From Candidatus Argoarchaeum ethanivorans (GTDB lineage: Archaea > Halobacteriota > Methanosarcinia > Methanosarcinales > EX4572-44): a stretch of DNA of 64,000 nucleotides. Positions 22,546-52,043 of the stretch are shown piece after piece. Under the pieces are notes generated by a model. That model was not told the DNA's origin, did no database searches, and saw only the letters and a program-made list of their open reading frames with translations. How positions within the stretch are numbered: the stretch's first letter is position 1; every line of letters starts with the position of its first letter. The stretch covers positions 4,790 to 68,789 of the forward strand of contig RPGO01000030.1 of the NCBI GenBank assembly GCA_004193545.1, in the 5' to 3' direction. A program made the translations under genes and the position numbers.

Positions 22546-23130
22546 CTATGTTCGCTCAAGATATTGCAGCATGTCTTCGATGTGCACGTTCTTACCAGAT
22601 AGGTGTATTGCCAACACATCGTTTCCGTGACAGTCAGAACATGCGATACCACGTGGACGATGCACTGTGATTAAGTTACCATCGCACGATTCTATAGGAT
22701 TTGGATAGCTATGACACTTTCCACATCTTGCTGCACCCCCTTCCAAAGTGGGAACTTCCCCCTTTTCTCCATGGCAATCGTTACATAAAACACCACTATC
22801 TTCCATTGGATGGGAGTTGTGGTCTATCGTATGGCAGAGCATACAGTATCGTGCCATTTCATTGTGCAGGCTATCTGCTTGAGGTACGCTGCGTTTATCT
22901 GTTAAATGGCAATTCTCACATGAATTATACGTTGCATCTGTCTGCGAAGTGGTTGTGGAAGAAGGTATTGTAACTACTGTTGTAACTGGAGTTGGTAACG
23001 GTGTGGTTGTTTCCTTTATTGTGCTTACTGGTGTTTTATCTGTATCGGTTTGATACACAATAACTACTGTAAAGATGATAGCAATTATTACTACGATAAT
23101 TCCTATTTTAAATCCTTTGACACTATTCAT
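22546..23130 (-). CDS. Membrane-anchored pentaheme cytochrome c
   Basis: N-terminal TM, Thr/Pro linker, then CENCH, CMLCH, CNDCH, CGKCH, CSDCH. Confidence 0.9.
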   Translation of the reverse strand: MNSVKGFKIGIIVVIIAIIFTVVIVYQTDTDKTPVSTIKETTTPLPTPVTTVVTIPSSTTTSQTDATYNSCENCHLTDKRSVPQADSLHNEMARYCMLCHTIDHNSHPMEDSGVLCNDCHGEKGEVPTLEGGAARCGKCHSYPNPIESCDGNLITVHRPRGIACSDCHGNDVLAIHLSGKNVHIEDMLQYLERT

Positions 23131-23224
23131 TGAAATTTATAACCTTTTATAATTTAATTATGTAGTTCCAACCCCATCATTTATAAATCTTGAGTTTTTG
23201 TTTTCCAGACGTGATGCTAGAATT

Positions 23225-23743
23225 CTAAGATCGTTCATGGAGGCTTTGAAGATCCTGTATATGACAAAGATCGCATGTGTAGCCTTTTTTGATATGTATA
23301 TCTATGATGTTCCCAGAGCTTGGCTTCAGCGGATCATCGTAATTATGGCAGGTATCACAGATAATTTCATGACCAGGCAGGCGTTGAGGTGTGATTGCAT
23401 TGTCTGTGTGGCAGTATTGACAGGTCAAGTTCACTGTTTTATCACTGGTATGCAGGTCATGTAGGTCTGCCCCATGACATGCTTTACAATAATTCCCCCC
23501 GTCTTTGTGCCTGGTGAGGTTTTCCGGTTGCTTATGACAGATATTACACTCAATTGTTTGTTCTTGTATCTCTTCGAATTCAGGTATTATTATTTGTGGG
23601 TTTGTGACATTCTTTGGTGCAAAAACGTTGGTCGTGGCTGCAATATACGCGGCACTGGCTATGAGAATTATACCTGTTATAACCATTGTTATGATGTATG
23701 GCGTATCTTTCATTGCCACTTTAGTGGTGTGCTTTTTTTGCAA
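23225..23743 (-). CDS. Membrane-anchored pentaheme cytochrome c
   Basis: N-terminal TM, then CNICH, CKACH, CQYCH, CDTCH, CDLCH. Confidence 0.9.
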   Translation of the reverse strand: MQKKHTTKVAMKDTPYIITMVITGIILIASAAYIAATTNVFAPKNVTNPQIIIPEFEEIQEQTIECNICHKQPENLTRHKDGGNYCKACHGADLHDLHTSDKTVNLTCQYCHTDNAITPQRLPGHEIICDTCHNYDDPLKPSSGNIIDIHIKKGYTCDLCHIQDLQSLHERS

Positions 23744-24117
23744 AGAGGGTTGCCCATTTCATCAGTTACCTTTACAATCACATCGACTGTGTCTCCAGTA
23801 TTTGGTATTGTTCTAAGGTCTGTTGTTATCTCGTATTCGCCCTCACCTATGTAGCTGCTGTATCGTAAGTAGCCGATTTCTCGCTTGTCTTTTATGATTC
23901 TAAGAGTTACACATGGAAATGGTGGTGACATGTCGCGATATTCTTCTAACCTGTTTACACTGTCTACTTCCGCCAGTAATTGTGTGATTTGTGGTTTCCC
24001 GTCCGTTTCTGTGATTGTTATTTTGGTTATTATGACTGGTTTATCCTTATCAACACAACCAGACGCAAAGACAAGCACCATGAATAATATAACAACAATG
24101 ATCGATCTCATAATCAA
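23710..24117 (-). CDS. Putative lipoprotein
   Basis: Hydrophobic leader ending in FASGC (lipobox); beta-rich body. Confidence 0.7.
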   Translation of the reverse strand: MIMRSIIVVILFMVLVFASGCVDKDKPVIITKITITETDGKPQITQLLAEVDSVNRLEEYRDMSPPFPCVTLRIIKDKREIGYLRYSSYIGEGEYEITTDLRTIPNTGDTVDVIVKVTDEMGNPLCKKSTPLKWQ

Positions 24118-24206
24118 AACATAATATTTAATACAATATAAGCTTTTGTAAATTATGAATTCAAACTGAAAAGATTAATAAATAAGTTAAAACAGATGTT
24201 GATTTA

Positions 24207-24650
24207 ATGATAAAGAATTTTTTGATTGCAACCACAGCAAGTGTTGTTGCTGGAGGTATTATCTATAGCCTGGTTGTTTTACTTGTTAATTATTTTGCGC
24301 CAATTGTTGCTGTAATCGCCGGGTTTGTTAGTGGAATAGGGCTTGTGGTTTTGAGCAGATGCAATAAAGAGAATAACAAGGATATTTCAGCAGTTGGTCT
24401 ATGCTATTTTGGAGTGGTTGCTGTAATGTCGCTTTTTACTGGATATCTGCTTATTTACTATTTTAAACCAGTGATTATTCATGGTATTATGTGTCATCCA
24501 AAAAACTTCATCGCATTTCCACAGTTTATTGTAAACACGCTTAAAATCCCAGATATTTTAAGCACAATATTCGGGGGCATTGCAGCATCAGCACTATCAC
24601 ATAAAATAAGAGCGATTTATGAATATTTTCGCCGTTCTTCGCCTGTATGA
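24207..24650 (+). CDS. Membrane protein
   Basis: About 4 hydrophobic segments. Confidence 0.6.
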   Translation: MIKNFLIATTASVVAGGIIYSLVVLLVNYFAPIVAVIAGFVSGIGLVVLSRCNKENNKDISAVGLCYFGVVAVMSLFTGYLLIYYFKPVIIHGIMCHPKNFIAFPQFIVNTLKIPDILSTIFGGIAASALSHKIRAIYEYFRRSSPV

Positions 24651-25384
24651 TTGGACCTGCTTTGGGCGATTGTTATATCTATCGGGACAGTTGAGTGACA
24701 ACTAATACATGCCAGATAGCTCTTTGAAGTATAATCACCTGCAAGATTTCCTGGAGTATGGTTGAATGGTTCACCTGCCACAAATCCGGTTGGCTCATTG
24801 ACCAGACTTAGATAGAATGCATTATGAAGATTGCCTGATTCATTCAAAACATTTCCAGCATCAACTGTTGGCAATGTGTCGAATAACTGAGGATCATTGA
24901 ACGTATAATTTCTATTTCCATGGCACCAGTCATCATCGCAAGTTCTTACGATAAGTGCATGACTGTGTTTATCTGCCAGTGATGAATTGTGGCAGAGGTG
25001 GCAGATTTCATTTCCATCGATTTCATTGCTGCCATCTGCATCTAACTTTTCCAATCTTGATTCTGTGTCATTGATCCACGAACTTCCATTCCATGTCCAG
25101 ATCTTATCTTCTACTGTGTCAATGGTGCCACCTGATGGATGGTAATCAATACCGCCAATTGCAAGATACGTGGTGTAATTGGTGTTGTTTGCAGCTCTGA
25201 TGTGTGCATCTCCTGCTGCTGATGTAGCCCACACCTCACCGTATTCTTCTTCATGGCATTTTTGACAGTTTATCTGATTATAAAAGACGTGCTGCCCACT
25301 AAACATTGAAAATATGTCAGGCACCACAAACATTGTAAGCGATATTAAGGCAAGCAGTAATAATATAATATTACTACGTTTCAT
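24617..25384 (-). CDS. Secreted tetraheme cytochrome c, nanowire (ECN)-like paralogue
   Basis: Signal peptide then SMFSGQHVFY; CQKCH, CHLCH, CDDDWCH, CISCH. Aligns by eye with 44478-45149. Confidence 0.8.
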   Translation of the reverse strand: MKRSNIILLLLALISLTMFVVPDIFSMFSGQHVFYNQINCQKCHEEEYGEVWATSAAGDAHIRAANNTNYTTYLAIGGIDYHPSGGTIDTVEDKIWTWNGSSWINDTESRLEKLDADGSNEIDGNEICHLCHNSSLADKHSHALIVRTCDDDWCHGNRNYTFNDPQLFDTLPTVDAGNVLNESGNLHNAFYLSLVNEPTGFVAGEPFNHTPGNLAGDYTSKSYLACISCHSTVPIDITIAQSRSNHTGEERRKYS

Positions 25385-25790: not shown

Positions 25791-25796
25791 GGTTTT

Positions 25797-28700
25797 TCAA
25801 TACCAGCTCTGGATTGTTTTATTGCCTTTGTCCGGATATTCATGGCACCATCTGCATTCATGCTCGGCGCTTGAGTTGAAGTTTGACTTTGCATTTTCAT
25901 AAGTTGTTGCATCATGGCAGGTTGTGCAGTTTGCAATCTCAAGTACGCATGTTCCTCCAACCATGTAAGTTAGCGGGTTACCTGTCACATTATGCCGATC
26001 GCTCTCGTTGATTAAGTCTAACTGATATGAATGGCAGCACTCGCACCATTTCCATGTGTACTCCTCGAGTGGATGCCAGTTAACAGGCTGATCAGTATGG
26101 ATATGACATTCTGTACAGTTTACAGTTGCATGCACGCCATAATTAAACATCGTCTCATTCACATAATATTTACTTGCAGTAGAATCATCCAGCCCGAAAT
26201 GACAGTTGTCGCAGTCCTGCTCCCATGATATGGTTGGGATGGTCAGGTTCTGGTCGTGCATCCGTCCTGTGTTGTGGCACTCTGTAATGGTGCAAGATTC
26301 TGTTCTGGTTGCATGCGGAATGTTCTCGGTGTAATTCTGCGAACCAGCACGCTCAAATATCTCGATGAACTCGTTTGTGGAGTTCCTGTGGCACCATGTG
26401 CAATCTGACAGGTTGCTTGCTGTTGCGATGTCAGGACGGCTTCGAGGATAGTGCGATGCCTCTGATAGATTCTGGCGATATGAAGACTGTCCAGCGAGTC
26501 CTTCGAACCCAGAAACTTTCATGGTGGTGAGGTTGTGGCAGCCGTAGCCACAGGACTCTGAGTTCGTCTCCGCGGTGGTGCGCGCAGAGATGTTGATGCC
26601 GCTTTTGAAGTGGTTGTAGACAGCGGTTGCATTACTTACGTTTTGGTATGCATAGGTTCCATTATGACATTCATAACAGAGATACGCATCATTGTTGAAG
26701 GTGCCTCTGTGCCCCTCTTCTGGACACGCTCCCTCTGGTACATGGCAGCCCCAGCACTTGGAGTTGTTCGCGTCACCCACCGTTATTGCAACCGAAGTCA
26801 TGTTGTCATTCACATTTGCATGCACTCCAAAATTCACTGCTGTGACATTAATTTTATACTTCAAGCCCTGCTGATCAGCTCCGTATGTTGCATGGCAGTT
26901 GGTGCAGTTCGCATCAGTTAGTACCCGTTCTAATGTGCCACTGTGGAGCCTACCTACACCATGACATTCATCACACGTCTGGATCTGATAGTGGTTGACC
27001 TTTTTCATGGATTGCTGCTCTACAAATACAGTCGATAGATTGTCATGACAGTAACCGCAATAAGCTCCCGGGTCATTTTCGATATATGTAGTGACAATAT
27101 CTGTTCGATTGTCGCCGTAATGGGATATTAGTGAGAAGTTCGTGAAGTAAGGATCTGTCTCGTTTTCATCGAATGTGTAGCGCATCTCTGACTGGTTGTG
27201 GCAGCCCATGCATGAGTCTAAATCTGTGGGGCGTGTCCAGTATGCCTCTATGCAGGTTCCACTCTTGAAGTGATTGTGCACTTCGGGTGCATCGCTCACA
27301 TTACTGAATAACGTGGTGTTGTCTTTGTTGTGGCAGTCGTAACAGTTGTAGGCAGGCTCTAGCCGGTTGCTGTGCTCATCCATGCCAACACCTTCTGGGA
27401 AATGACAGACCCAGCACGACTTGTTGATGTCGCCATCGACACTCGCATTGTTCATCCCGGCGTGGATCGCACCCATATATGCAATCTCATCAATCCTGCG
27501 CCTTTCTGCACTACCGTTACTGCCATGACACCTGAGGCAGTCAGGATCACCAACGATGCTCACCGCGTTTATGTTGTGGAAGTCAACAGGTGTCTGGTTG
27601 TGGCTATGGCAGAAGCAGCAGCCATCCTCAGGATTTGCTTCGTCTGTGAAGTTGCCGTGCTTGTTTGCGGTTGCATTGCCATAGAGAGTTGCGTTGGCTC
27701 TTGCGCTTGTTGTATTATCGTGGCAGTACCCACATTTCGTTGTTGGAGTAAGAAGACTACTCGTTGTACCGTAATGTGAGACACCTGAGAAAATCGTGTG
27801 TCCAAGTTCCTTGTAAGCGGTATCATTGTTATCGGAATTAAAGCTGTTGTTGTGACAGTCCACGCACCGACCATTGTCGCTGTGTTGGTTCGTTTTGACA
27901 TATGTCGAGTTTGGATAATGGTCACTTATCAGAGGAGGCAGCCTGTTCAGACCGAGAGCAGGATCGCTTGCACTCTCCCATGTATGCCCATCACCTGTTG
28001 CTCCACTCCATGCCTCGCTTCGTGCATGGCAGTCCTCGCAGGTGTACGGCAGCTCATCAACTGTTATGATCCCATCCTCATTCCGATCAGTGATCCCGTT
28101 TCGATCACCCATGCCTTCTGGAATCGTACCGTCGCTCTGATGACAGCCCCAGCATGGGTTTGACCTGTTATCCATCCCATACGTCTCGTGGACGAGGGTG
28201 TTGTTCAAGATGTTTCCATGAATTCCCATCTTGATTGCAGTGGCATTTACAAGCGACTGGACTCCGTACTTGCTATTCACATCATGGCATAAGGTGCAGT
28301 TGGGACCTCCGCCAGCGTAGATTGATTCGTTGTGGAAGTGTGTAAGTGTGCTCTCTTCAACACTACCGACCCAATCAGGTCTGACATGGCAGTAGGTGTA
28401 GCACGTAGAGACATTTGTTGTGTCAGCGCCGTACATATTATCGGCGATGTACGTGGCATTGCCCCAGATCGAACCGTTGGTCGAGTCGCAGTGGCAGTAT
28501 AAGCAGTCTGTGGTGTTGAATAGTGGATTATCAATTCCAAATGCCAGCCCCTGTGTTTTATTCAGCCCATAGTGCGAGACGTCGCCCATCGTTGATCTGC
28601 CTGTATAGGTAATAAAACTTTTAGATGGAGTATACTTCCAGACCTTGAGTTCGCCTATGGAACTGTTTGGGAGAACGCTCGGAGCATGGCAGTCGTCACA

Positions 28701-31700
28701 TGAGCCGCCAATTCCGACACTGGTCTGGATGAGTATCGATTCAGCGCCTTTTGTGGTCGGACCATGGTTATCGATCGCGGCAACAAGCCCCTGCGTGTGC
28801 GGCGGCTGACCATCGTAAGGTCCATGGCACTTTGCACATTTGTATGGATTCAGTGCCCGATCCGGATGGAAATATGGACTTGGCGGTGTTCCGTTGGTGC
28901 AGTGACATGCCCAGCAGATCGCATTGTCTCCGGTGATATTTACGATCTGTGGGGCGGTGTACCCGCGATATTCGAGCCATTCAGTGAAGTTTTTGTCAGT
29001 TCCCTGGAGATCGCTGCCTGTTCTAAACGCACCGCTCAGATTGGTGTGCATCGCAAGTTTTACCGCGGTCAGGTTCACGATCGGACGGATCGGGTCGGTG
29101 TTGTACGCGGACGCGTTGTTGTCGTGGCACTCGAGGCAACCCGCACCGCCAGCGGGGGTGTAGTTGACGAATGGCTGGCGGTAGTTGAAGCTGTTTGGGA
29201 GTTTAAATCCATGACACCCGCCACAGGATGGATTATCAAGACCGCCAGCCTGATTCATCGTTGAATTCGACCAGTTCGCATGATCCAGTATCGTTTGATT
29301 TACCCAATCGCCATCATTATCCGCCCCGCTTGGAAGTGTGAGATTCGTGATGTAGGTATATTTTATCGGTGGGCGTGTCGTTGCCGGATAATCAGAACCA
29401 TGCGGATTGTGACAGGAGTAACAATGATAGTTGGGATGACCGGTCCATCCTGCCTGTCCGCCTTGTGGAGAGTGAATATTCTGTAACATTGGAGTTCCAG
29501 TACTACCAAAACCCGTCCCCCAATGATAATACTCATCCCGAAAGTTCGTTTGATTCGTGTAATTCTGAAGATGCGAATTAGTCTCGCCCGACATCTTCGC
29601 GACGAGTTTCTCCTCAAGATGACACACAAAGCAGAGTGCATAGTTGGCTGAGTTATAGTTACCTTCTGTGTTAGTCCTGTAATACCTCAGCAAATCAGAA
29701 TCATACTCCGTCCCATGATTGTCATGGCATGCCTTGCATGAAAGTTTTCCATCCCCGAGTGGATGATGTGTCGTCTGGTTGAACTCAGTCTCCTGAACAA
29801 GCCGTTCCTGTGTCGCACTCGCGCCGTGGCAGTTAAGACCACCAGTTTTGCCAGTGTAGCATAACTGCGGGCTCTGATTGTACAACAGATCCTTTCCGCT
29901 CTCGTTTCCGTGTGGAATCGCAATGGAATCGTTCTCGTTATGGCAGTCGATGCATTGTCCGGGCGTGTATGGCTCATCGAGGCTATTAAATACCTGTGAG
30001 GTGTAGTTCGTCCAGTGTAGTGTGTCCTTGAACTTGAGCTTATCCAGATGGCAGTAGTAGCACTTGCCGTTCGGTGTGTAGCCTGTGTCAACGAGAATTG
30101 TAACCCCGGGTCCTGTAATCTCGGTCGTGATGTTCCGATATGTGATATTCTTACCCTGTATCTTGTCCCATCTGTTGATTGCAGTGCAGTTCATCGGCTG
30201 ATAAGTGGTTTTTCCAGTCACGTTCTCCTTGTACTCGATTATCGGAAGCCAGTTATCGCCTGATGCAGGGGGCCCATAGTAATCGAAATCATTGCTGCTC
30301 AACCTGCCGTGGTTTGAAAGTGGTATCTCATTTTCACCCCAGACCGTCACATTCCCGATATCAGAAAACTCGCCGTACCTGACCGTGAGATTCGCCCAGA
30401 CAAACTCTATATGGTAGTTGTCCCAGCAGAGCACATCGATCCTCCACATCAATGTCAGATTTGAAGTATCCTCATAGCCTACCTCTGTCTTGTTAAATAC
30501 CGTGTCAAGTGTTGCGAGTCTGGTGTCGTTTGTAAGGTAGAAGGTGTAATTCGCTGTCACCGACTCGTTGTTTACAATCACACAATAGTTTGAGTCGTTG
30601 AGGCGGATGTCGAACTCTGACGAATTGCGTGTGAGATCGTTTCCGATGATCGTTGCGTTCGTTGAGTGCTCTTCAAGGAGGATGCCTGTAATCGTATAGT
30701 TTGTGATGTTGTTTGCGGTTAAGTTGTGATCCCTTGATTCTGTCAGGAATATCCCTCTCAGTGTTGCATCGATTGTGTTATTCGTGAGGTTTCCCTGGTT
30801 TGACTCTGACATATAAATCCCGTCCTCACCTCTTATCGTGGTGTTCAGAATTTTGGTATAGTTTGATCCTGAACAGTACACACATGTGTTGTTTGCAGTG
30901 AGGTTGGAATCTGTGAGAGTAATATAATCGGACGTAGATAAATATGCGCTGTGTGATGATGTTGAGGTGATCGTTGTGTTTGTGAGATTGGTGTAATGTG
31001 CACCGATGGTGTATAGTCCATACCGATCTACAGATGAGATCATTGTGTTGGTAATTGTGGTGTAATCTGATGAGGATAGGTACATTGCATTAGAGGTTGT
31101 GGCTGCGAAACTGCTGTCTGTTATGTTGTTGTGATCCGAATCCTCTTCGAAATGCGCTCCATACAGGTTGCTTGGACTTATCGTATCGAGATCAATGATG
31201 CTGTTCTCAGATGAGCCGTATAGCCAGATGCCATTGCAGTTATTCGATATGGCGTTGTTTGTCAGGTTATTGTTACTTGAATTCCGTAAAAATATGCCAT
31301 AACCGGATTTGATATTATTCGAAAATTCGCTGTTTCTTATGGTGAGGTTGGTGCAATCGATGAGCGTGATCTTTCCGACATTGCTCACATTGGATGCAAA
31401 GAGATACTTATTTTCGATGATGTTATCGCCCAGTTCGGTGATCTTGTCGTGCTCATCGTAATAGTAGTTTATTTGTTCGCCGTTTGCTGTGTTGTTTCGC
31501 CAGATGTGATTATAAAAAGAATTCCTAACATAAGAGACTTTCAGTGCATAATGCCCGCTGAGTGATGATATGGTGTTGTTACTTAAATAATTATAATTTG
31601 TATACGCCCCAATACCTGTGTTGTTGTTCGATAGTATGGTGTTGTTGGCAATAGTGTTTTGCGTGCTTAGAGAGCTATAATAATATGTACCTATGCAGAT

Positions 31701-33494: not shown

Positions 33495-33705
33495 TTTACG
33501 CTGTGTTATGATTTATTATTATCTATTTTCTGTTGCCTGAAATTATAGCTCATAAACACAATCATTCACTAATCGTTCAAAACGTATTTCATTTTGAATA
33601 TGCACAAAGATTCCAAGCAATTCATAGGCAGGAGTACGCCAAAATCCTTATAATAGATAAAGAATATTAACCAGAGTAGAATGTAATAATTTTGGGTGAT
33701 GAAAA

Positions 33706-34263
33706 TTGTTAGAACATAACTCTTTTGATACGCAGCAGAATAACACGCATTCAAACCTCGAGCATGCTGTTGAAAATGGCTACTTAAAACCTGTAGACGA
33801 AGTGATCGAATTACTTAGGGAAGTGATTGATGTACTTGAGGAGATAAATGGTATTGATGCTACAGAAGAATTGTTGTATGATATCGGCAAAAGCAGGGGT
33901 AAGTGCATCGGGAAACTACTTGGAACAGGAAAACACCCAAAAACTGCTATCGAAGAATTTATTGAGCACGTCAAACATTGCTATTCCATAGAAGTTATAG
34001 ATCAAAAAGACACGGAAAAGAAATATACAGCAAAACTACAGATCAACGAATGCATAATAAAAAAACTATGTGGAGGTTGGAGTGAACCTATGAGAAACCT
34101 TCATTGCAGAAATATCAATGGATTATTTGAAGGAGCACTATCTTTTATGACTAAGATGAGTGTTACTGCATTACTCAGTGCTGATGAGGATGTATGCCAT
34201 ATTACTATGGTATTCAATAATAATAATAATAATAATAATAAGCGGAATCACATCATTCACTAA
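33706..34263 (+). CDS. V4R-domain (4-vinyl reductase-like) putative sensor protein
   Basis: LLYDIGKSRG, ECII, HCRNINGLFEG and VCHI Cys pattern. Divergent from the giant MHC gene. Confidence 0.65.
   Translation: MLEHNSFDTQQNNTHSNLEHAVENGYLKPVDEVIELLREVIDVLEEINGIDATEELLYDIGKSRGKCIGKLLGTGKHPKTAIEEFIEHVKHCYSIEVIDQKDTEKKYTAKLQINECIIKKLCGGWSEPMRNLHCRNINGLFEGALSFMTKMSVTALLSADEDVCHITMVFNNNNNNNNKRNHIIH
34216..34239 (+). repeat. (AAT)8 microsatellite encoding poly-Asn
   Basis: AATAATAATAATAATAATAATAAT near the 3' end of the V4R gene. Confidence 0.9.
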
Positions 34264-34268
34264 ATCAA

Positions 34269-42100: not shown

Positions 42101-42562
42101 GATAAACATTCGCTTGAACCAGTTGAATATTTTTGTTGACAAGCTTGTGGTTTCCGGATAACCGGTCAGGTCTATATCCTGCCATGGTGCACCAGTGGTA
42201 TCATAGTTATCAAGATAGTGCCAGCTGTGTGTGCCTTTCTCAGCGTTCCAGCTGTACCCACCGCTTTTTTTTGTTGTACTATCTCTTATCCATGATTGTG
42301 GTGAAAGGCCGCTTACTGGTGTAGTGTTTTCCATAATACTTACTAATACCAGATTTTTCTGCTGCATTCCAATTTCAGTATCCCACCAGTTCCAGCCAGT
42401 GGTATCACCATTTGAGAGATATCCAAGTTGATAAGGTGTCTGCCCGTAGCCAAGTGTCACTGTATACGTTTCCGCCTTAACAATAACTGTACAAGCACTG
42501 AACACTAAAACAAGAAAACTGATGATTAATAATAGTGTTCGTCCAGTGCAAGCGTTTTTCAT
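36125..42562 (-). CDS. Giant membrane-anchored multiheme cytochrome c with S-layer (DUF1608-like) and beta-sandwich domains
   Basis: Signal peptide; 35 CxxCH plus CX4CH and CX3CH (hand count); Methanosarcinales S-layer-like segments at ~38290-38985 (GESLNL..GYIL...LRLYKNETLVDD.II.EG.YFTYE); C-terminal TM followed by RRFR. Confidence 0.92.
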   Translation of the reverse strand: MKNACTGRTLLLIISFLVLVFSACTVIVKAETYTVTLGYGQTPYQLGYLSNGDTTGWNWWDTEIGMQQKNLVLVSIMENTTPVSGLSPQSWIRDSTTKKSGGYSWNAEKGTHSWHYLDNYDTTGAPWQDIDLTGYPETTSLSTKIFNWFKRMFIGAETSSDQTINLTFWNQYRMMDSGGFVKVSVDMGATWDTLAEYSGNSSGWTQESINLTQYSGQKVFVAFHFISNNNNNNGEWWIDDITVETSDGNIIFSNGAETRAPKLTATIYYPHYDYAGDHFSTKSETIELSENYIHQIYYGTFTYPNDAYAGRYTIEFSTTIGSEDLSASTSFNTTLWGCQARGCHDSWSPQSDLSVRNPVTAMHPDNITSNIKGSCLTMCHSTYSSQFLRATPIHLHDIKYGHEGGFIYGESGWVTIFNNSNTNVQLYRKSSVGRKIPQTKFNIPSHVTDADCTQCHTSFIHSQSGKDTYDIAVPHSLNGSYLGRSGVHYNVSCEACHGIYYKSEGHGLIYPQFDGVTTLNDTIGDYEPEFMSYEAVTKTYIIDVNSGTINVTVDGDDPLYEIFLTLVGPVDDVNGLQDLNTGDKWQGTYTVPSVNGTAVFAEGSKICYPVGDKLHTTSFNAVPKSGTWIAKIFSRSPGMFNYTITSNHSIQSKPIIHIPWNCSECHNPGASGDLSGAKTSKPIPSWDNNGLSHTHADTNDDGMDDVTCRLCHNSFHDISIRNCTDCHTQRPGGHAVADYYEMEYTGCMLCHNDPHVEPEAAAGGDCTDCHLEGGANVTSGIPIINKTGFFGSIHRNITGQFSQTNYTSISRVCWGCHVNYTQQLIDSSHTKRVTDLPACEDCHDTGTPLNSEYLNQTPLQVREHQPNGEDIQTDSNCTICHNKSLTIAPPTENVKYPRAKNYISHYGRQRTDMWVVENNQVITNCSYCHTGGGREFYCVFVDPSNADITHGTNCTSCHGSGRIHDKSLEVPIMSKDNEACLVCHSNKTEFEGAEFRTSAHANIFCVDCHTPRQVFKDIIVNRESYTYNFSMVSNITCLNATLDWNGSSILNLTLYAPDTNYTGTRINISSPQLGNWTAIVCDVSGDTEFTLTIDVDMKHGEEYKAKICEECHISGFADTPIVYKHIPDQSSVPTNASCALCHAQGAHHATTIEISASHYLKKESLETRDCIRCHTGIVDGWGNAPDQGDHVHYTTINKTLVANQQWKLVDNYSLTLIETTRDAAIFKFEKDEEILREELIVKGDVFKYEVCGIAPGKTTIVNLTVNRLFTAKDRYVAELSGTILASRIHRETENKACWGCHDSQYRANAPEGTDYYVLKKDIENVTLARMPVNLTDNETIMLDIGESLNLTCGYILYVADVNIKRGGAKLRLYKNETLVDDVIINEGCYFTYEERLLDRKIDVIRVKLDRVFIGAAPSIVLSNIRVIAGKQKTLSATTQVLQSGIPLKYLPLDSYITVGEKPETFHVYTLTPGGYSSDCISCHSGDGVAPIKIDIDQFKRGVHAGLNKDADYFSFITDDANKACWACHGNGSSGEPVRHPTPYFGNCTPQTCIHCHGHSKFGAKQVYTHYQGAEISTTSACWDCHSNMLLEDKHTQASASHYSTREDLLNTSDCSVCHNNETNAPEWGSAPQVIKHNSNNTCTRCHAGEGLTNFHKPGITITRECKDCHVNKERCEELNLTVIRTHYPGAPEDSADTLKNYNYTCEMCHNATNTTLHESLEVVRGNQTMGYCFQCHSIEGEFSHKPEAQIKIFRHGRGIKVKSGCEACHDPKGVSIFHAPSMVGKTGIIGARNFALDCIECHEEHEGREYQPFEGIRCIDCHTEYGASHYSTAEIEIVNRTETCGLCHNPEADLYHNLTHIEANVSEEALRPCYVCHGEEIDLFNETQQKAVGITRGTMATIGNVSDEPLRTCSSCHNATGESRFHFDTYSRGTVQNPDWKDWTPGNITGCKDCHTYHGGCSPFNATNMGTEGRSPKGTAHGFAPNCTICHGGEDPISFHSLAATEFLPRVVVTLEPNTVAIGEVSVLRVTVVLPPLMKIVRAEYFIDILGIKGKGKHLKYIIGENGESSAVVGDTINTSMMSYGEHFIFVRVKDSAGHWSKTGIGVLKVVKPRKLVITEFILKICIPAVIIIFGLLYFAWRRFR

Positions 42563-43617
42563 CTTTTCCCACGTCTCAATTTGCTACCTACAATGTACGA
42601 TGCGACAAGCAAAATACCTGTTAGTACCAGATAGTCAGGTGAATATGCAGGCATCCATTTTAGATTGTATTTTATATTAATCATTTGTAAGACTAATAAT
42701 AATCCAAAAACGAGTGAACTTATAATTAAAGATGTCGAAATTGAGTGACGCTTTCGAGTAAACTTTTCTTTTAGTATCGTCAGGTGTGCTATTCCTTTAT
42801 TTTCTTTTGGAATTTTATTTGTCAGTTTATTTAAATCAAATGGTAAGCATCCCTCGATAATATACTTGCTCCATGTAAAATATGCAGTTGCATACACTAC
42901 AAGCCCAAGGGTCATGCTGCCTATGAGTGTTCCGCCCCCATAGACTACCTCAAATAGAATCGTTGTGATTGGGATAGTCAGTATCGGGATAAATGCCCAA
43001 ACCCATGCAGATGACCGCTGCCAGAGGTTGTAATCGTATGTGATTTCAAGCCACCAGACGATGTACAGCATTGTTATCAAGTACGGTGTGTAAGCACGTG
43101 TAAAACTCAAAAGGAATAAAAATACTGCAAGAGTGGCATTGATTAACAAAACCAATCGAAGAAAACGCGATACTTCCGAAGCAATATCAATGCCGTAGGC
43201 TGATCCGTCCCCTTGAATTGTGAGAGTTACAGAACGCTTTCCGAGTCGATCGATATTGGTATTCATACTGTTCATCCGCTCTTCAATTTTATCAATCATC
43301 ACCTGGGTGCCTGCAATTTCTTTGAGGATTGGTTCAAGTCGTGTATAGATTCCATTTTCAAACCCAACATCAATCAGTTGCTCAAGTGCGATTGTTTTTC
43401 TTACAAGATTGATCCCACCACACAATGTAGCCACTCCAAGCAGTATGATTGTTAGATTTATAATAACCTCTCTTTGCTCAAACTCTTCTCCAGACAACAG
43501 ATCAATTACTGGCTGATAGGACAGGTATACAAGGTAAATTCCAGCAATAACTATGCAGATAGCACCAAATTTTCCAAATAGTGAAATACCAGTTTTTCCG
43601 CTCATTTCAATCAACAA
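42559..43617 (-). CDS. Polytopic membrane protein with a coiled-coil segment
   Basis: About 8 hydrophobic segments. Overlaps the downstream MHC start by 4 bp. Confidence 0.75.
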   Translation of the reverse strand: MLIEMSGKTGISLFGKFGAICIVIAGIYLVYLSYQPVIDLLSGEEFEQREVIINLTIILLGVATLCGGINLVRKTIALEQLIDVGFENGIYTRLEPILKEIAGTQVMIDKIEERMNSMNTNIDRLGKRSVTLTIQGDGSAYGIDIASEVSRFLRLVLLINATLAVFLFLLSFTRAYTPYLITMLYIVWWLEITYDYNLWQRSSAWVWAFIPILTIPITTILFEVVYGGGTLIGSMTLGLVVYATAYFTWSKYIIEGCLPFDLNKLTNKIPKENKGIAHLTILKEKFTRKRHSISTSLIISSLVFGLLLVLQMINIKYNLKWMPAYSPDYLVLTGILLVASYIVGSKLRRGKR

Positions 43618-43632
43618 CGATTATATAATTAT

Positions 43633-44406
43633 TTAGTGTTTGCTGCTTGCAGCTAAGAAAATGTAGAGCAGTATGCAGATTATAAATATTGTAAATCCAA
43701 GTTTTTTGACATTTTTAAGAATCTGGCTTACTCTGTGCATTTCAGACCCATATTTTGTAATCTGTACCTTATCTGAATCAAATAGCAGATATTCACCAAT
43801 ATTCTTAACTATTATTGGTTCACCCTTGAATAATATGGCTTCTCCCTGTATTGTCTCTTTTTTCAGTGTCCAGTCATCAGGAAATGCTACTGCATCACCC
43901 TTTGTTTTGATGACATCCCCTGATACAGAGTGTACCCGATGAATGACCGGCATCCTCGCTTTTTTTGTGTTAAACATGACAATGTCACCCTGCTGTGGGT
44001 TGACATGCAGGTTCTGTATGAGAACTAGGTCCTTTACCTCAAGAGCAGGCGACATGCTGCCTGAAGTTACGATAGCAAGAAATACGTAGTGGTTAAGGAC
44101 GATGTATGCTATAACGATCGTGATTAACAGTGGAATAAGCACCGGTAAAACTCTCTGTCTTTTTGATAACTCCCCATAGTGTCCCATCCTGCTTTCGACA
44201 GATTTTTTCTGATTTTGGTAAGTGATTTTTTTTATTAAAGTACTGATAACATTTGGAAAAAATGTTGAATTTCTTACATGTATATTACGTAAGATTATAA
44301 AAAAGATTAATGTGGCTAAAAACAGGATTAATAAAACTTGATTAATATATAAGAGATAAAAAAATGAAGATAATAATATACCAATCGAATCTTCTACAAA
44401 CGACAT
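43633..44406 (-). CDS. Signal peptidase I, S26 family (Sec11/SipW type)
   Basis: SGSMSP (catalytic Ser), GDIV.F, IHRV (His), KTKGD; TM segments at both ends. Confidence 0.88.
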   Translation of the reverse strand: MSFVEDSIGILLSSFFYLLYINQVLLILFLATLIFFIILRNIHVRNSTFFPNVISTLIKKITYQNQKKSVESRMGHYGELSKRQRVLPVLIPLLITIVIAYIVLNHYVFLAIVTSGSMSPALEVKDLVLIQNLHVNPQQGDIVMFNTKKARMPVIHRVHSVSGDVIKTKGDAVAFPDDWTLKKETIQGEAILFKGEPIIVKNIGEYLLFDSDKVQITKYGSEMHRVSQILKNVKKLGFTIFIICILLYIFLAASSKH

Positions 44407-44477
44407 GGTTTATTATATAAAAATATCAAATATTTAAAAATTAAAAAAATTAAAGATGATCAATATCAATGATCATC

Positions 44478-45149
44478 TTAATCCATCACAAGTGTTGTAT
44501 TCGTGGTGACACCAATATCCCATGTCTCAGTCGTTGTGTTTATACTTGCATTGATATCAAGCCCGCCGAACTTGTACCATGTGATATTGATATTGGTCAT
44601 AGTATGGCATCCGATACATGCGGAACTGTCGGTTGCAGCACCTTCGGATTGATTGTAGAAATCACTGTGTGCAGAACTAGAACTTCTTAACTGTACTGTT
44701 GCATTGTAATGACAGTCTCCACAATCTACCTTTATTGCGGCATGGGGGGTGGCCTGACTTCGCCATGTTCCATTGAAAGCAGTTGAGTAACTTGTATTGC
44801 TCAAACCTTCTTGTGTGAAATCCTCAAAGTTATAGCCTGTCAACGATGTAATATTCAAGCCATAATCAGTCTCAAGTATTGTTTCATTAATCTGATGACA
44901 GATACTGCACCCTGAAGTGCCTGAGTAATTCACAGCAAAAGTTGCATGTGCACCACCACGAGCTAAATTTGCATTCCACTCATCAACCTCTGGCTGATGA
45001 CACTTTGCACATAAATCTACCATATCATCCGGGTTCTTAACACTATACCATGTGTGCTGCCCTACAAACATTGACATGGTTGAAGGCAGTACAAAAAGTC
45101 CAATAGCTAAAATGCTACAAGACAACAACAATATATATTTACCTTTCAT
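44478..45149 (-). CDS. Secreted tetraheme cytochrome c, candidate extracellular cytochrome nanowire (ECN) major subunit
   Basis: Signal peptide then SMFVGQHTWY; CAKCH, CSICH, CGDCH, CIGCH; beta-rich C-tail; strong GAGGTGA RBS. ECN resemblance is from recall, not from a search. Confidence 0.8.
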   Translation of the reverse strand: MKGKYILLLSCSILAIGLFVLPSTMSMFVGQHTWYSVKNPDDMVDLCAKCHQPEVDEWNANLARGGAHATFAVNYSGTSGCSICHQINETILETDYGLNITSLTGYNFEDFTQEGLSNTSYSTAFNGTWRSQATPHAAIKVDCGDCHYNATVQLRSSSSAHSDFYNQSEGAATDSSACIGCHTMTNINITWYKFGGLDINASINTTTETWDIGVTTNTTLVMD

Positions 45150-45265
45150 TTTTTTATCACCTCTTAATTAGTTTACTGACAATCAATACTACTACTCATA
45201 ATCACATAAATATCTTTCTTTTTTTTAATAGTTACGCAACTTTTCCATCTTTCTAAAGCAATATC

Positions 45266-45399
45266 GAGGCTGTCAACTTGTTGGGTGTTATACCAGAACC
45301 CTAATTTCTTTCATGCGTTCAAACCCAGAACAGTAGACATTATACCTGAATACACAAGCAAGTCGAAACAATGCCAACACCCAACAACTTTACAACCAC
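45266..45399. mobile_element. MITE with 8-bp target duplication GCAATATC
   Basis: Ends GAGGCTGTCAACTTGTTGGGTGTT / AACACCCAACAACTTTACAACCAC; GCAATATC at 45258-45265 and 45400-45407. Confidence 0.85.
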
Positions 45400-45407
45400 G
45401 CAATATC

Positions 45408-46965
45408 GGGGTTGTAAACTCTCCGGGTGTTGGCGCTCATTATAGAAAGATCCATGCTGAAACACCTGTATCTTCTTTTTAAATCTGATTTTGTCTTATA
45501 ATTCAAGTTTCTATCCAAAAATAAATCGAAAAATCTATGCATAAGGAAAACAGAGTATGTACAATGAGTGTTACAATGTTATCTACTTTGAAAACAAACA
45601 TCTCGCAGATTCAGCTTCTCTTGTCTGATTTTTCCAACGGTACCCCGGAACCATAGAAGATCATAGCAGAGCGATTTTCGATGGATAATAAACCGTATCA
45701 TGTGAACAAGGGATTGATTCTCCTGGCAGATAACCATTTTGAACTTGTTAACCCAATTTGTCCTATTTGTGGTTCTTATTGTGTGATTCGGCAGGAATTT
45801 CAGGAGCGAAATCCGATACTGGGTGAGTTTGGATCTTGTGAGATTTATATGAGGCGTTATTTGTGTAAAAAATGCCACAGAAAGTTTGTAACACAGTTAA
45901 ACCTGGTTGTATAGCCGAATCATCGATATGCATCGATATTCAAGGAGAAAATAGATGGTTTAGTCAAAACAGGCTACCGTTCCTTGCGAAAACTGGGTGA
46001 GGATCTCCATACGTTCTTCGGAATCTCGCCCTCTCACCAATCGATAACCTTCACACCAATCGATAAAGAACTGGCTAAGAATCGGGGATGAAAAGAGAAT
46101 CAATAACCATATACCAGATTATTCTGGATATTACTGCTATGATGAGCAATATATCAAGATTGATGGTAGAAAAAGCTATCGTCTGACATTATTTGACGCT
46201 TTATTGAATATCCCAATCGCTGAAGAGATAGCCAAGAAAATAGATTACACGACAGTTTACAACTTTTTAAAATCAGTACTTGCAGATAAACCGCTTATTA
46301 CAATAACAACGGATCACAAGAGGATGTACAATAGCATAATCGAGAAACTGGGAGCTTTACATCAATTATGCATATTCCACCTATTCAAAATGATAGGAAA
46401 GGAAATGATAGGAGAAGATGTATACGACCGTTTAAAGTCCAAAACTATCCCATATCGAGATAAAATCAAATTATGCATATACTTCACTAAAATCAAGGAA
46501 ATATTCAGGACATACGACCTTAATGTTGCAATAAATAGATTAAATAAATTATTAGATAAATATGACGATATTTCACGCGTTTTACAAAAGTGGATACGAA
46601 AAAAGATCATCCCTGACTTTGAACGACTTAATATCTTCATGAGAGATGGGTCAATCCCCAAAACGAATAATCAAGTTGAAAATTACTACCGACAGACCGA
46701 TCCCAACCAAATAAAAAGGAAATACAAGACATATCAAGGAATACTCGCCTTTCTAACAAGAAAAATGGAATACTGGACATCAAAACATGGGAAGATACAA
46801 CACCCAACAAGTTGACAGCCCAAAATTACTACCGACAGACCGATCCCAACCAAATAAAAAGGAAATACAAGACATATCAAGGAATACTCGCCTTTCTAAC
46901 AAGAAAAATGGAATACTGGACATCAAAACATGGGAAGATACAACACCCGGAGAGTTTACAGCCCC
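45408..46965 (+). mobile_element. Degraded DDE IS (ISNCY/ISM1-like) with a fragmented transposase
   Basis: TIRs GGGGTTGTAAACTCTCCGGGTGTTG / CAACACCCGGAGAGTTTACAGCCCC. Zn-ribbon CPICG..CKKC, YCYDEQY, TTD, HQLCIFH, TNNQVE. Contains a stop, frameshifts and a ~120-bp 3' duplication. Confidence 0.8.
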
Positions 46966-46972
46966 GATATTG

Positions 46973-47107
46973 GTGGTTGTAAAGTTGTTGGGTGTTGGCA
47001 TTGTTTCGACTTGGTTGTATAGTTCAGGTATAATGTCTACTGTTCTGGGTTTAAACGCATGAAAGAAATTAGAGTTCTGGTATAACACCCAATAAGTTGA
47101 CAGCCCC
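46973..47107. mobile_element. Second MITE copy, inverted relative to 45266-45399
   Basis: Reverse-complement match to 45266-45399; followed by GCAATATC at 47108-47115. Confidence 0.85.
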
Positions 47108-47115
47108 GCAATATC

Positions 47116-48503
47116 TGCTTTGTTGAATAAATAGTCCCTTTTTGACTCTCCTAAGAATTTTCTTCTATCCTACGCCCAATTTAATAGCATGTTATAAAAT
47201 GTAAACTTCATAATAACTTCTTTGAACATACCAGAGTTACTACTCGCTCGTACCGATTCACCAAAGATTCGTTTTACAGAAGAGTAGGTGCCCTCAACTA
47301 CCCATCGCATTCCGTAATCATATTTCTTTTTCCATTCATCGTAGCCAAGTTTCTTTCGTTCTCGTACACATTTCGCCCTATAAGGTGAACCCTTTGCTTT
47401 GGTACTTGCATCTTTTCTCGTTTTGATCCCTGATTCTATGCCCTTTTTATGCAAGAAACTGAAGTTGCCTTTAGTATCGTAGGCCCCATCACCTAAAGCC
47501 CGCTTTATTTTATCATAACCTATGGTTTCTTCAGATACTTCAATTAAATCTTCAAATTTATCCCCGTCACTGGTCTGTTCGTCAGTGACCTCTATAGCAA
47601 CAATTTCCTTTGTGTTTACATTAACCGCTATATGAGCCTTAATCCAACCTCTATGGATTCTCCATTTTTCTCGCATCCATTCTCCTCTGTTTGTAACCTT
47701 TACTCCAGAACTATCTACTGCAATGATAATATCTTCGTCCTTATTCTTTATCGTATCACTAAGCTCCAGCTCCAATTTTTCAATCCGTTTGAATAACGTC
47801 GTATAATCTGCGGCGCTCTAGCTTTGGGATCATTTCGGATAATTTACGACTGAATCATTCCATATGTCGATAAGGCATGGCAAATATAATATGAATAAAT
47901 GCCATCCACAATATGAACTGTTTAGGATACTGGAAGGGTGCTCCACGTTTGTTTTTATTCATTTTTGCTATCTCAAGATCCCAGTTCTCGACGAATTCTA
48001 AAGAAAGATACAATTCACCTCTTTGAACCAATCTTTCATTGTATTCCTTCCAGTTTCTGTTATCTTTGTATTTCTTGCCCCATCTTTTCTTTTCCCATCG
48101 TTTTGACATAGTGCATCATAACTGAATAGTTATTCAGTTATATATTTATATCTGTTAAATGCATACGGGAGCCACATGAAAACTGCTACTCTCATTATTT
48201 TTCATCTGCATAGAAAAGATAAAAAAATTGAAATGAGTAATGCATGCAAATTATATCGGGAATTGTATGGATATAATAATTATTCATTCTATGGAAAGTA
48301 CCGTAGTAGAATTGATGGGTTAATTGACAAAATCAATGGTATTCGAATTGTAAGGAGTGTAGTAATCGTTAGAAATGAAGATGCAAAATCAGTAATGGAT
48401 CTCCTGTTAAAATACCAAGCCGAAATAATCACAAAAAAAGTGATTTTAGATCAGAATGATATTAGACAACTGCGAATCGACTAAAGAATTATTCAACACA
48501 GCA
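47116..48503 (-). mobile_element. IS5-family (IS903-like) element with a frameshifted transposase and a divergent passenger ORF
   Basis: TIRs TGCTTTGTTGAATAA / TTATTCAACACAGCA; TSD GCAATATC (47108-47115, 48504-48511). ORFs 47855-48109 (NWKEYN..L.QRG) and 47170-47775 (VDSSG, W.K.H, GDGAYD, YGMRWVVE). Confidence 0.9.
48176..48484 (+). CDS. Small basic protein carried inside the IS5 element
   Basis: Intact 102-aa ORF that ends just before the right TIR. Confidence 0.7.
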   Translation: MKTATLIIFHLHRKDKKIEMSNACKLYRELYGYNNYSFYGKYRSRIDGLIDKINGIRIVRSVVIVRNEDAKSVMDLLLKYQAEIITKKVILDQNDIRQLRID

Positions 48504-48561
48504 GCAATATCAAAACACTTAAATACAACATTTTTCCTATAACTATCAAGGTGAAATAGCT

Positions 48562-49134
48562 ATGATTTTAGAAAAAAAAGGTCCAATTATATGTACAGTG
48601 CTCATTATTGCAGCAATGATGATATTAGGTATGGGTTGTACGGATATAGATTCAAAAACACCGGTTGAAAAACCTCTGGAAACTCCTGTTAAAACAGCTC
48701 CGGAAACTCCTGTTAAAACAACACCAGTACCAACACCAAAGCCTACTCCAAAACCAACAACGGTTGTCGCAGCTCCTCAGCCAATAAAATGTGATTTGTG
48801 TCATGTCGATTCAGGAACGTTGTTACCACATAAAGAAGGTGGTAAATACTGCTTCAAATGTCACGGCAGTGATGTGCACCCTATACACATTGGAACTGGC
48901 ACTGTAAATCTTAAGTGTGAAAGTTGTCATGGCCCAGCAACAGATCTCAGCATACCAAAAGCAGAAGCCGGGCATGTAACATGTGAAAAGTGTCATGCAG
49001 CACCTCCAGATTCATTCCAGCCATCCAATGGAGACATAGTAGAAATACATCTTTCACGAAATGTGTATTGTACCAAATGTCATGGTTCAGATGTGTATAA
49101 GCTCCACGAGACAGTTTTAGGGACATCGAAATAA
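48562..49134 (+). CDS. Pentaheme cytochrome c lipoprotein
   Basis: Lipobox LGMGC, Pro/Thr/Lys linker, then CDLCH, CFKCH, CESCH, CEKCH, CTKCH; AGGTGA RBS. Confidence 0.9.
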   Translation: MILEKKGPIICTVLIIAAMMILGMGCTDIDSKTPVEKPLETPVKTAPETPVKTTPVPTPKPTPKPTTVVAAPQPIKCDLCHVDSGTLLPHKEGGKYCFKCHGSDVHPIHIGTGTVNLKCESCHGPATDLSIPKAEAGHVTCEKCHAAPPDSFQPSNGDIVEIHLSRNVYCTKCHGSDVYKLHETVLGTSK

Positions 49135-51237: not shown

Positions 51238-51243
51238 AACGTG

Positions 51244-52042: not shown

Positions 52043-52043
52043 C

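Follow-up and report, generated by a model that had tools for sequence, protein, structure and literature searches.

A probable ANME-type island of large multiheme cytochromes in a GoM-Arc1-type ethane oxidiser

How ethane-oxidising archaea of the GoM-Arc1 clade transfer electrons to their partners is a debated question. In a 64,000-nucleotide stretch of the 'Candidatus Argoarchaeum ethanivorans' genome (GCA_004193545.1, contig RPGO01000030.1, forward-strand positions 4,790 to 68,789; hereafter the window, to which all coordinates refer), a 27-kb locus at 22546-49134 encodes eight c-type cytochromes, and an earlier note on this DNA had read it as a self-contained archaeal nanowire and electron conduit. 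The question raised by this locus is which system it encodes. Our analysis indicates that it is very probably a large multiheme cytochrome (MHC) island of the type known from anaerobic methanotrophic archaea (ANME), carried here by a GoM-Arc1-type ethane oxidiser. The locus is genuine and holds the entire giant-cytochrome cluster previously described from methane-oxidising archaea, and the system itself is not new. What is new here is the concentration of eight of the genome's ten cytochrome candidates in one place, the joint occurrence of three of its genes across the phylum (55 of 67 genomes), and an insertion derived from insertion sequence (IS) elements that splits the locus. A full ANME-type apparatus, with almost the whole cytochrome complement in 27 kb, would give direct electron transfer a concrete genetic basis and is a compact target for expression studies.

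The gene identities, order, strands and overlaps given in the earlier note were matched by the open reading frame (ORF) list and by Pfam. Its hand count of about 99 heme-binding motifs in eight heme c proteins was close to our script count over the eight genes, which gave 91 CxxCH, three Cx3CH, three Cx4CH and one CxCH motif, 98 in all. Read from the right, the minus strand carries genes for a tetraheme cytochrome, an S26 signal peptidase, a polytopic membrane protein ('8x TMH', here 8TMH), a 2145-aa giant cytochrome (MHC-B), a CcmF paralogue (CcmF2), a 2565-aa giant cytochrome (MHC-C), cytochromes of 138 and 255 aa, a 135-aa lipoprotein-like ORF and two pentahemes; the plus strand encodes a third (Table 1). 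The presence of a CcmF and an S26 peptidase gene among the cytochrome genes, together with the polytopic membrane protein, was borne out by matches to Cytochrom_C_asm and Peptidase_S26. Overlaps of 4 nt join the 8TMH gene to MHC-B (42559-42562) and MHC-B to CcmF2 (36125-36128), and one of 11 nt (25374-25384) joins the genes of the two small cytochromes. The set consists of an MHC-B operon (ECN-family tetraheme, extra S26 peptidase, 8TMH protein, MHC-B and CcmF2), an MHC-C block, in which MHC-C is accompanied by the ECN-like cytochromes of 138 and 255 aa, the 147-aa membrane protein and the 135-aa secreted protein, and three membrane-tethered pentahemes. The inventory needed amendment at two points: the 138-aa 'triheme' does have three motifs, only two of them canonical CxxCH and the third CxCH, and two conserved plus-strand ORFs that encode no cytochrome (24207-24650 and 33706-34263) had been omitted.

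Every cytochrome of the locus carries a signal peptide or an anchor. In the whole genome (1.99 Mb), 11 ORFs hold at least two CxxCH motifs; eight of them are inside the locus, with 91 of the 104 motifs. A 384-aa ORF on contig C13 was excluded as a DnaJ-type zinc-finger protein by its sequence, leaving ten cytochrome candidates. The two outside the locus are a PF13447 octaheme with a PGF-CTERM-like end (contig C14) and a 108-aa triheme. The clustering of heme motifs in the locus is far from chance.

Table 1. Features of the cytochrome locus, with window coordinates, strand and the basis of each assignment.
Feature	Position	Strand	Basis
Pentaheme cytochrome c, 194 aa	22546-23130	-	5 CxxCH
Pentaheme cytochrome c, 172 aa	23225-23743	-	5 CxxCH, Pfam
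Small secreted/lipoprotein-like protein, 135 aa	23710-24117	-	lipobox-like ...ASGC
Small polytopic membrane protein, 147 aa	24207-24650	+	hydrophobic segments, conserved
Second ECN-family cytochrome, 255 aa	24617-25384	-	3 CxxCH + 1 Cx4CH (CDDDWCH)
Small cytochrome, 138 aa	25374-25790	-	2 CxxCH + 1 CxCH (C-L-C-H)
ANME MHC-C type giant cytochrome, 2565 aa	25797-33494	-	32 CxxCH + 2 Cx3CH + 1 Cx4CH
Conserved ORF, 185 aa, no transmembrane segments	33706-34263	+	homologues in related loci
CcmF2, divergent CcmF/NrfE-type heme lyase paralogue	34269-36128	-	Cytochrom_C_asm, PF01578 E 1.7e-13
ANME MHC-B type giant cytochrome, 2145 aa	36125-42562	-	35 CxxCH + 1 Cx3CH + 1 Cx4CH
'8x TMH' (8TMH) polytopic membrane protein, 352 aa	42559-43617	-	homology, no family
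Extra archaeal-type signal peptidase I (S26), additional transmembrane segments	43633-44406	-	Peptidase_S26, PF10502 E 2.3e-10
ECN/MmcX-family tetraheme cytochrome, 223 aa	44478-45149	-	4 CxxCH, match to 8e5g_A
IS-derived insertion, two elements with transposase fragments	45225-48504	.	DDE domains; inside locus, outside system
Pentaheme cytochrome c, 190 aa	48562-49134	+	5 CxxCH, Pfam

For comparison, 26 related loci (given L numbers) were retrieved with an alignment of the 8TMH protein and compared by BLASTP. Both giant cytochromes belong to described types. In the part of Chadwick et al. (2022; PMC9012536) cited here, ANME MHC-B is characterised by an S-layer domain, a C-terminal helix and a peptidase-M6-like N-terminus, and ANME MHC-C by a pectin-lyase-type N-terminus with neither S-layer domain nor anchor; all of these published features were found in the locus proteins. 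In MHC-B, a signal peptide is followed by a heme-free M6/MAM-like N-domain, 20 heme motifs, an S-layer-like domain, 17 heme motifs and a C-terminal transmembrane (TM) helix. No heme motif precedes residue 338, and the N-terminal part matched InhA-like MAM (PF20773, E 2e-6, 27.9 bits, cut-off 26.9). The 2145-aa protein had been called a TM-anchored S-layer cytochrome, and both elements were recovered: PF07752 matched residues 1335-1421 (E 2.6e-11, profile positions 107-198 of 259), with one CxxCH (residue 1297) inside the projected domain envelope, and a hydrophobic segment at 2121-2139 is followed by RRFR, the helix being a hydropathy prediction only. Ordinary tandem PF07752 S-layer proteins are also encoded in the genome, and the S-layer-type domain of MHC-B could fit their lattice. 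Full-length MHC-B orthologues in L002-L013 are 53-93% identical, and a PDB sequence search with MHC-B returned nothing at E <= 0.001. The Pfam MtrC/MtrF domain II/IV matched both giant cytochromes (E 1.5e-30 and 2.9e-28).

In MHC-C, a signal peptide and a beta-helix of about 1100 aa are followed by 32 CxxCH and three longer motifs, the first heme standing at residue 1145. The beta-helix architecture proposed for this 2565-aa protein was confirmed by matches to Beta_helix (E 9.7e-61, eight stretches) and NosD (E 6.2e-46, six stretches). With Pfam it gave no PF07752 match, and no C-terminal anchor was found, the hydrophobic segments being N-terminal only. It is 64.5% identical to a partial orthologue in L007. 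The G+C content of its heme-rich half is 0.48-0.51 (window 26001-30000), compared with about 0.37-0.45 in the remaining window.

CcmF2 is, by sequence, a divergent paralogue of CcmF/NrfE. It scored 51.1 bits with Pfam PF01578, above the cut-off of 29.9, and 150 bits with NCBIfam TIGR00353, under the cut-off of 569; the NCBIfam NrfE models scored far under their cut-offs. It is 29% identical to CcmF1 of the same genome and keeps W222, W226, W228, H164, H247, H288 and H468 in 24 of 24 sequences, aligned with the same residues of CcmF1. With its WWD tryptophans and four histidines retained, the latter presumably being heme-binding ligands, CcmF2 looks active. It adjoins MHC-B wherever the 3' end of the latter gene is available (23 of 23 loci); the remaining three contigs stop within MHC-B. 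The 185-aa ORF at 33706-34263 belongs to no Pfam or NCBIfam family, and its homologues lie after CcmF2 in L002, L009 and L010. The first two heme sites of MHC-B are non-canonical (Cx4CH at residue 338 and Cx3CH at 375) and are kept in 10 of 10 orthologues. That CcmF2 may exist because of these sites is an idea already in print (PMC9012536), and the same source, in the part cited here, describes a divergent CcmF2 as always standing beside MHC-B, 'Ca. Argoarchaeum' included. It also cites NrfE, the CcmF paralogue for the CxxCK site of NrfA, which is likewise a second heme lyase paralogue beside a cytochrome with non-standard sites; the sites here are Cx4CH and Cx3CH, and the site specificity of CcmF2 is putative.

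The order ECN gene, S26, 8TMH, MHC-B was found in 11 of the 26 loci, labelled GoM-Arc1, Methanoperedenaceae, Methanosarcinales, Methanosarcinaceae, ANME-2 cluster metagenome-assembled genomes and, in one case, Nanoarchaeia. Another 13, several of which carry the label Methanogaster or ANME-2 cluster, have the order MHC-B (frequently split over two ORFs), CcmF2, 8TMH, with no S26 or ECN match in the locus. The contig end cuts the upstream side of L011, and 1.9 kb upstream in L003 contains no S26 or ECN match. L007 lacks no member of the set, as MHC-C, both small cytochromes and the 147-aa and 135-aa proteins are all present, and its order is different: MHC-C is upstream of the ECN gene there and downstream of CcmF2 here. 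Co-conservation of the gene set, proposed as a check in the earlier note, is therefore seen both as synteny in related loci and, as described below, as joint occurrence across the phylum.

The same proteins, domain architecture and order are found in the ANME cluster of MHC-B, CcmF2, signal peptidase and '8x TMH' protein (PMC9012536, Figs 11-12), where the last two are described upstream of MHC-B. Our locus differs in that the host carries an ethyl-CoM-reductase-type enzyme; that MHC-C, two more ECN-like cytochromes and three pentahemes are joined to the cluster within 27 kb; that most of the genome's cytochrome candidates lie in it; and that an IS insertion splits it. MHC-B and MHC-C also stand side by side in a locus that is syntenic between 'Ca. 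Methanovorans' (ANME-3) and Methanocomedens (ANME-2a), for which joint working was suggested and a fusion, MHC-D, is described (PMC12180501, in the part cited here); the lineage is different in our case. S-layer conduits with specialised maturation, including modified heme motifs, had already been proposed (PMC9012536), and the interpretation in the earlier note is essentially a fair restatement of that published hypothesis on ANME MHC-A/B/C and their maturation genes.

The insertion was delimited by comparison with L002. The 3.3 kb at 45225-48504 stand where this 93%-related locus has 125 bp. They contain one element at 45265-47108, bounded by inverted repeats of about 170 nt (45265-45432/46941-47108), and another at 47115-48504 with 16-nt inverted repeats (47115-47130/48489-48504). 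The two IS-like elements adjoin each other between the divergent genes of the locus, and the transposase ORFs in both are broken; contigs C4, C14 and C33 have related transposase ORFs. The third pentaheme (48562) is parted by the insertion from the MHC-B operon, and its orthologue in L002 lies directly beside the tetraheme gene in divergent orientation. This pentaheme had been counted as part of the locus, which stands, with the qualification that the insertion severs it from the rest.

Which organism carries the locus? The single Mcr-type alpha subunit of the genome scored 942 bits against ethyl-CoM reductase 7b1s_A and at most 482 bits against any methyl-CoM reductase. The closest related locus, L002 (93% identical in the 8TMH protein), is labelled GoM-Arc1. 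These results indicate that the host is an ethane oxidiser of the GoM-Arc1 clade, and the ANME-2 context assumed in the earlier note has to be given up. Nor is the locus 'self-contained'. A Cytochrom_C_asm search of the genome returned three genes, a 255-aa CcmC-sized ORF (contig C13), the 772-aa CcmF1 (C20) and CcmF2 of the locus, and CcmE was found on C33. The octaheme on C14 (G000:C14:94823-96220, L075) is the genome's only other large cytochrome; it has eight CxxCH motifs, a PF13447 match (E 1.2e-43), a weak match to hydrazine dehydrogenase and a PGF-CTERM-like end scoring 17.6 bits, just below the cut-off of 18.8. It was considered as a membrane entry point and rejected, its neighbours being a small NIR_SIR protein, a rubrerythrin and an FMN reductase rather than Rnf.

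Archaeal tetraheme cytochromes are known to polymerise into nanowires. The tetraheme (44478) matched PDB chain 8e5g_A (AvECN) with a phmmer E of 8.9e-14, and an ORF of genome G300 that matches 8e5g_A over all 262 residues was 27% identical to it by BLASTP (240 aa, E 6e-15). These matches indicate that the tetraheme and the AvECN filament subunit are truly homologous, and the relation to polymerising tetrahemes claimed for it holds at the level of homology; a filament role is putative. What it shares with the AvECN filament (PDB 8E5G), MmcX and ECN-Mv is the four c-type hemes, whole-length homology and the conserved N-terminal stretch ...LPSTxSxFxGQHxWY.... The identity is only 27%, and polymerisation of the tetraheme is conjectural. 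Eight histidines are invariant among 16 aligned ECN-family members and would fit four proximal and four distal heme ligands. The 255-aa protein, with orthologues in L007, L008, L014 and L056, gave a weaker match to 8e5g_A in its N-terminus only (E 1.3e-5), and the 138-aa cytochrome has an ECN-like N-terminal ...MFSNSH motif; its orthologues in L007 and L014 retain C-I-C-H. The N-terminus is the best-conserved part of the ECN family: most matches in the phylum span profile positions 1 to about 85, and in distant ECN-family ORFs a hydrophobic N-terminal stretch is followed by ...S(L/M)Fxx.H in 24 of 24, and 18 of these have G-Q-H. The family is in print as MmcX, from ANME-1, ANME-2, ANME-2d, Syntropharchaeales and Archaeoglobales (PMC11176372).

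Some heme sites of these proteins are unusual. The second site of the tetraheme's close homologues (n=46) is G-C-F-C-H in 29 and CxxCH in 16. In the 138-aa protein (residues ~63-66) and two orthologues, C-x-C-H replaces CxxCH as C-L/I-C-H. Homologues P0103-P0131 have C-x-C-H sites, and the distant ECN members L052:10317-11021 and L058:8158-8892 have C-D-C-H. A full-text literature search combining 'CXCH', heme and cytochrome found no title or abstract opening on such a motif.

The three pentahemes (22546, 23225 and 48562) are mutual paralogues. The first has an N-terminal TM helix (residues 7-25) followed by a Thr/Pro-rich linker, and a Cytochrome_C7 match (E 4.5e-6). The second also begins with a TM helix, and its homologues adjoin the 8TMH gene in the distant loci L051, L052, L053 and L060. 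The third has a lipobox-like signal and a Pro/Thr-rich linker; in the PDB it matched only NrfH (E 0.0026, no passing stretch), which serves as a lead only. The 135-aa protein belongs to no Pfam or NCBIfam family, and all of its ESM Atlas matches were below 0.9. It has homologues in L005, L007, L008, L014 and 8 of 20 distant loci, and is a conserved companion of the pentahemes. The 147-aa membrane protein, also outside the Pfam and NCBIfam families, has homologues at the same position in L005, L007 and L008. The density of N-x-S/T sequons was then compared with that of 1341 genome ORFs. MHC-B stands at the 97.8th percentile, MHC-C (132 sequons) at the 99.7th and the three ECN-like proteins at the 98.6th-99.9th, the tetraheme being at the 99.5th. 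Pentaheme 23225 is moderate (94.7th), and the other two pentahemes and the 135-aa protein have no sequon. This pattern agrees, if indirectly, with outer components that are heavily glycosylated and inner ones that are tethered. Sequon density was also tried as a marker of the outside half of MHC-B and rejected, the two heme blocks having 3.61 and 3.71 sequons per 100 aa.

The S26 peptidase and the 8TMH protein were compared with their relatives. The peptidase scored 56.9 bits with TIGR02228 (cut-off 51.85). S117, H156, D171 and D177, which we take to be the catalytic residues of S26 enzymes, are invariant in 16 of 16 sequences, and with the serine, the histidine and both aspartates retained the enzyme looks active. 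A shorter signal peptidase I on contig C11 scored 27 bits against the profile of the paralogue, which itself scored 365 bits, indicating that the locus gene is an extra copy. The 8TMH protein belongs to no Pfam or NCBIfam family; it has 86 homologues, with 76 representatives among 1.84 billion proteins, and an ESM Atlas search gave no usable match. The family has a conserved Trp-rich stretch, WWLEIT, and no invariant His or Cys, so a heme-handling role like that of CcmC or CcmF is not favoured. P0138, P0144, P0145 and P0159 are longer homologues: three (663, 587 and 590 aa) have N-terminal TPR repeats and one (1483 aa) has an N-terminal beta-propeller and an Ig-like domain. One TPR stretch weakly resembles CcmH/CycH TPR (E 1.7e-5, below the cut-off). 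These fusions hint at a scaffold role.

Three alignments served to survey these two proteins and the ECN family in one and the same sample of 401 genomes from the phylum. The 8TMH protein was matched in 63 genomes (E 1e-4), the ECN family in 61 (E 1e-8) and the S26 paralogue in 59 (E 1e-20). Of the 401 genomes, 334 have none of the three and 67 have one or more; the full triad is present in 55. These genomes are kin, so that the counts overstate independence. The same families were matched by all three genes, including f8, which contains G300, and f15; none of the three was matched in 52 genomes of f2, which is in the host's own order. When the best match per genome was considered, S26 and 8TMH were at most 5 kb apart in 36 of the 58 genomes with both and on separate contigs in the other 22. 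From the 63 genomes with an 8TMH match, 20 distant loci were chosen so as to represent many families. The 7 kb around 8TMH contain S26 in 14 of them, ECN-family genes in 12, a homologue of the 135-aa protein in eight and a CcmF2-like gene in three; pentaheme homologues adjoin 8TMH in four. No CcmF2-linked MHC-B was found in these 20 loci anchored on 8TMH. In G300, the ORF matching the filament subunit (~76 kb) and the S26/8TMH pair (~1,646 kb) are about 1.57 Mb apart, which cuts against a simple operon picture.

Dedicated processing enzymes are known from other archaeal surface filaments. By analogy, the ancient core of the system might be the triad of ECN cytochrome, extra S26 and 8TMH rather than MHC-B and CcmF2. 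The peptidase and 8TMH protein would then form a dedicated filament processing and assembly device recognising ...LPxTxS(L/M)FxGQH..., and many family members would attach heme 2 through C-x-C-H. We offer this scenario tentatively and think it more apt to fail than to hold. A literature search, confined to main texts other than the AvECN structure paper, found nothing linking the peptidase/8TMH pair to the ECN family, though supplements of published work may already show parts of this. We regard the CxCH sites and the joint occurrence of the triad as leads, the latter a testable one on how archaeal cytochrome filaments are made.

Two other explanations bear on the small cytochromes and their neighbours. 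Instead of polymeric wires, the ECN-family proteins might be shuttles, either monomeric or associated with the membrane, that carry electrons between it and the giant cytochromes. The low identity to the sole solved filament subunit of the family speaks for this, as does the distance between the filament gene and the S26/8TMH pair in the very genome that encodes that subunit. Moreover, in 'Ca. Methanoperedens vercellensis' the homologue ECN-Mv was abundant and yet no ECN filament was resolved by cryo-EM, nor has any Methanosarcinales homologue of AvECN been resolved as a filament, according to the passages of PMC13748539 cited here. The same study, however, reports a thicker unresolved filament that coincided with ECN abundance. 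Whole-length homology to AvECN and eight heme-ligand histidines invariant in the family also argue against shuttles, and sequons at so high a density suggest that the protein is exposed and glycosylated, which has been reported for cytochrome filaments. A shuttle function is a real possibility, though we would not expect it. The S26 paralogue and 8TMH protein, on the other hand, might be maturation factors for MHC-B, the latter handling heme, rather than partners of the ECN family. Their genes immediately precede that of MHC-B, and the 8TMH stop overlaps the MHC-B start; the WWLEIT stretch would suit heme handling; and such a role was proposed in section 24 of PMC9012536. Against it, the 8TMH family lacks the invariant His or Cys that would parallel the four histidines of CcmF, its TPR and beta-propeller fusions suggest a scaffold, and its distant loci, frequently with S26 and ECN neighbours, contain no CcmF2-linked MHC-B. 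Loci of the ANME-2c type hold MHC-B, CcmF2 and 8TMH with no S26 match in the locus, and MHC-B has an ordinary signal peptide in contrast to the nearly invariant ECN-family N-termini. We consider a role confined to MHC-B maturation unlikely.

How would an ANME-type island serve an ethane oxidiser? The analysis shows which genes are present, their domain architecture, homology and synteny, their co-occurrence among genomes and the retention of catalytic residues. From these data we infer, as follows, where the proteins reside, in which order electrons pass, how filaments might form and on what the peptidase and CcmF2 act. All cytochromes would be exported, and the general Ccm system, whose genes lie elsewhere in the genome, would supply their heme; CcmF2 would handle MHC-B, with its two non-canonical first sites, and the S26 paralogue would cut the unusually conserved N-terminal signal of ECN-family proteins. 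Electrons of ethane oxidation would pass from the membrane to the tethered pentahemes and then along MHC-B, anchored by its C-terminal helix, with the S-layer-type domain between its two heme blocks. Beyond the S-layer, they would reach MHC-C and the ECN-type cytochromes and finally a partner bacterium or a mineral. In the MtrCAB conduits of Shewanella and Geobacter, named as an analogue in PMC9012536, a heme chain likewise crosses the outermost cell layer; unlike MtrCAB, the present set has no porin and no outer membrane, and the crossing element would be an S-layer-type domain inside the cytochrome. The 'adhesin-like tip' that the earlier note assigned to the beta-helix protein, and the spatial order of its 'assembly line', are conjectural extensions of this scheme. 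In a cultured relative, cytochromes are reported among the highest-expressed genes (PMC7175092).

The locus might instead serve soluble or mineral acceptors (metal oxides, humics or sulfur species) or electron uptake, and not wire the archaeon directly to a sulfate reducer. Archaeoglobaceae-type genomes contain the same families (f8, 25 of 64), the peptidase and 8x TMH protein have been linked to Ferroglobus and Geoglobus, which are capable of extracellular electron transfer (PMC9012536), Methanoperedens is reported to use related cytochromes on electrodes and iron oxides, and loose, non-wired consortia are described for 'Ca. Argoarchaeum' (PMC7175092). That source, in the part cited here, also describes GoM-Arc1 genomes as having no reductive pathway of their own and as growing with sulfate-reducing partners. 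We consider this reading unlikely; the two uses are compatible, and the machinery would be the same.

Some observations weigh against the island as an active conduit for direct transfer. For cold-adapted 'Ca. Argoarchaeum', transfer of zero-valent sulfur was proposed instead of direct electron transfer, the latter being proposed for 'Ca. Ethanoperedens' (PMC7175092). No membrane carrier:cytochrome oxidoreductase was recognised in the locus, for which no dedicated search was made, and the entry point of the chain is hypothetical. The equal sequon density of the two MHC-B heme blocks gives no support for an inside/outside topology, and the AlphaFold2 (AF2) models of the tetraheme and the 8TMH protein, each from a 16-row alignment, are too poor for structural support (mean pLDDT 47.1 and 55.8). 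No RNA run was listed for window 36125-45149, and the insertion, 75 bp upstream of the start codon of the tetraheme gene, the first of the MHC-B operon, might affect expression. As the assembly (46 contigs) is 82% complete, the counts of genes elsewhere in the genome are lower bounds.

The locus is flanked by housekeeping genes and IS elements. Beside it, at 49206-52856, lies a bacterial-style partner-switching set consisting of an RsbU-N/GAF protein, a SpoIIE-type phosphatase, two HATPase anti-sigma-like kinases and a STAS protein. These genes were considered as regulators of the locus and rejected, since they are conserved adjacent to it only in the closest relative, L002. Farther away, the window contains repeated IS pieces at 4613-8161: HTH and DDE_3 ORFs are found at 4613-5768 and 5888-6983, and a second ORF set of the same sizes (143, 100 and 126 aa) at 7066-8161.

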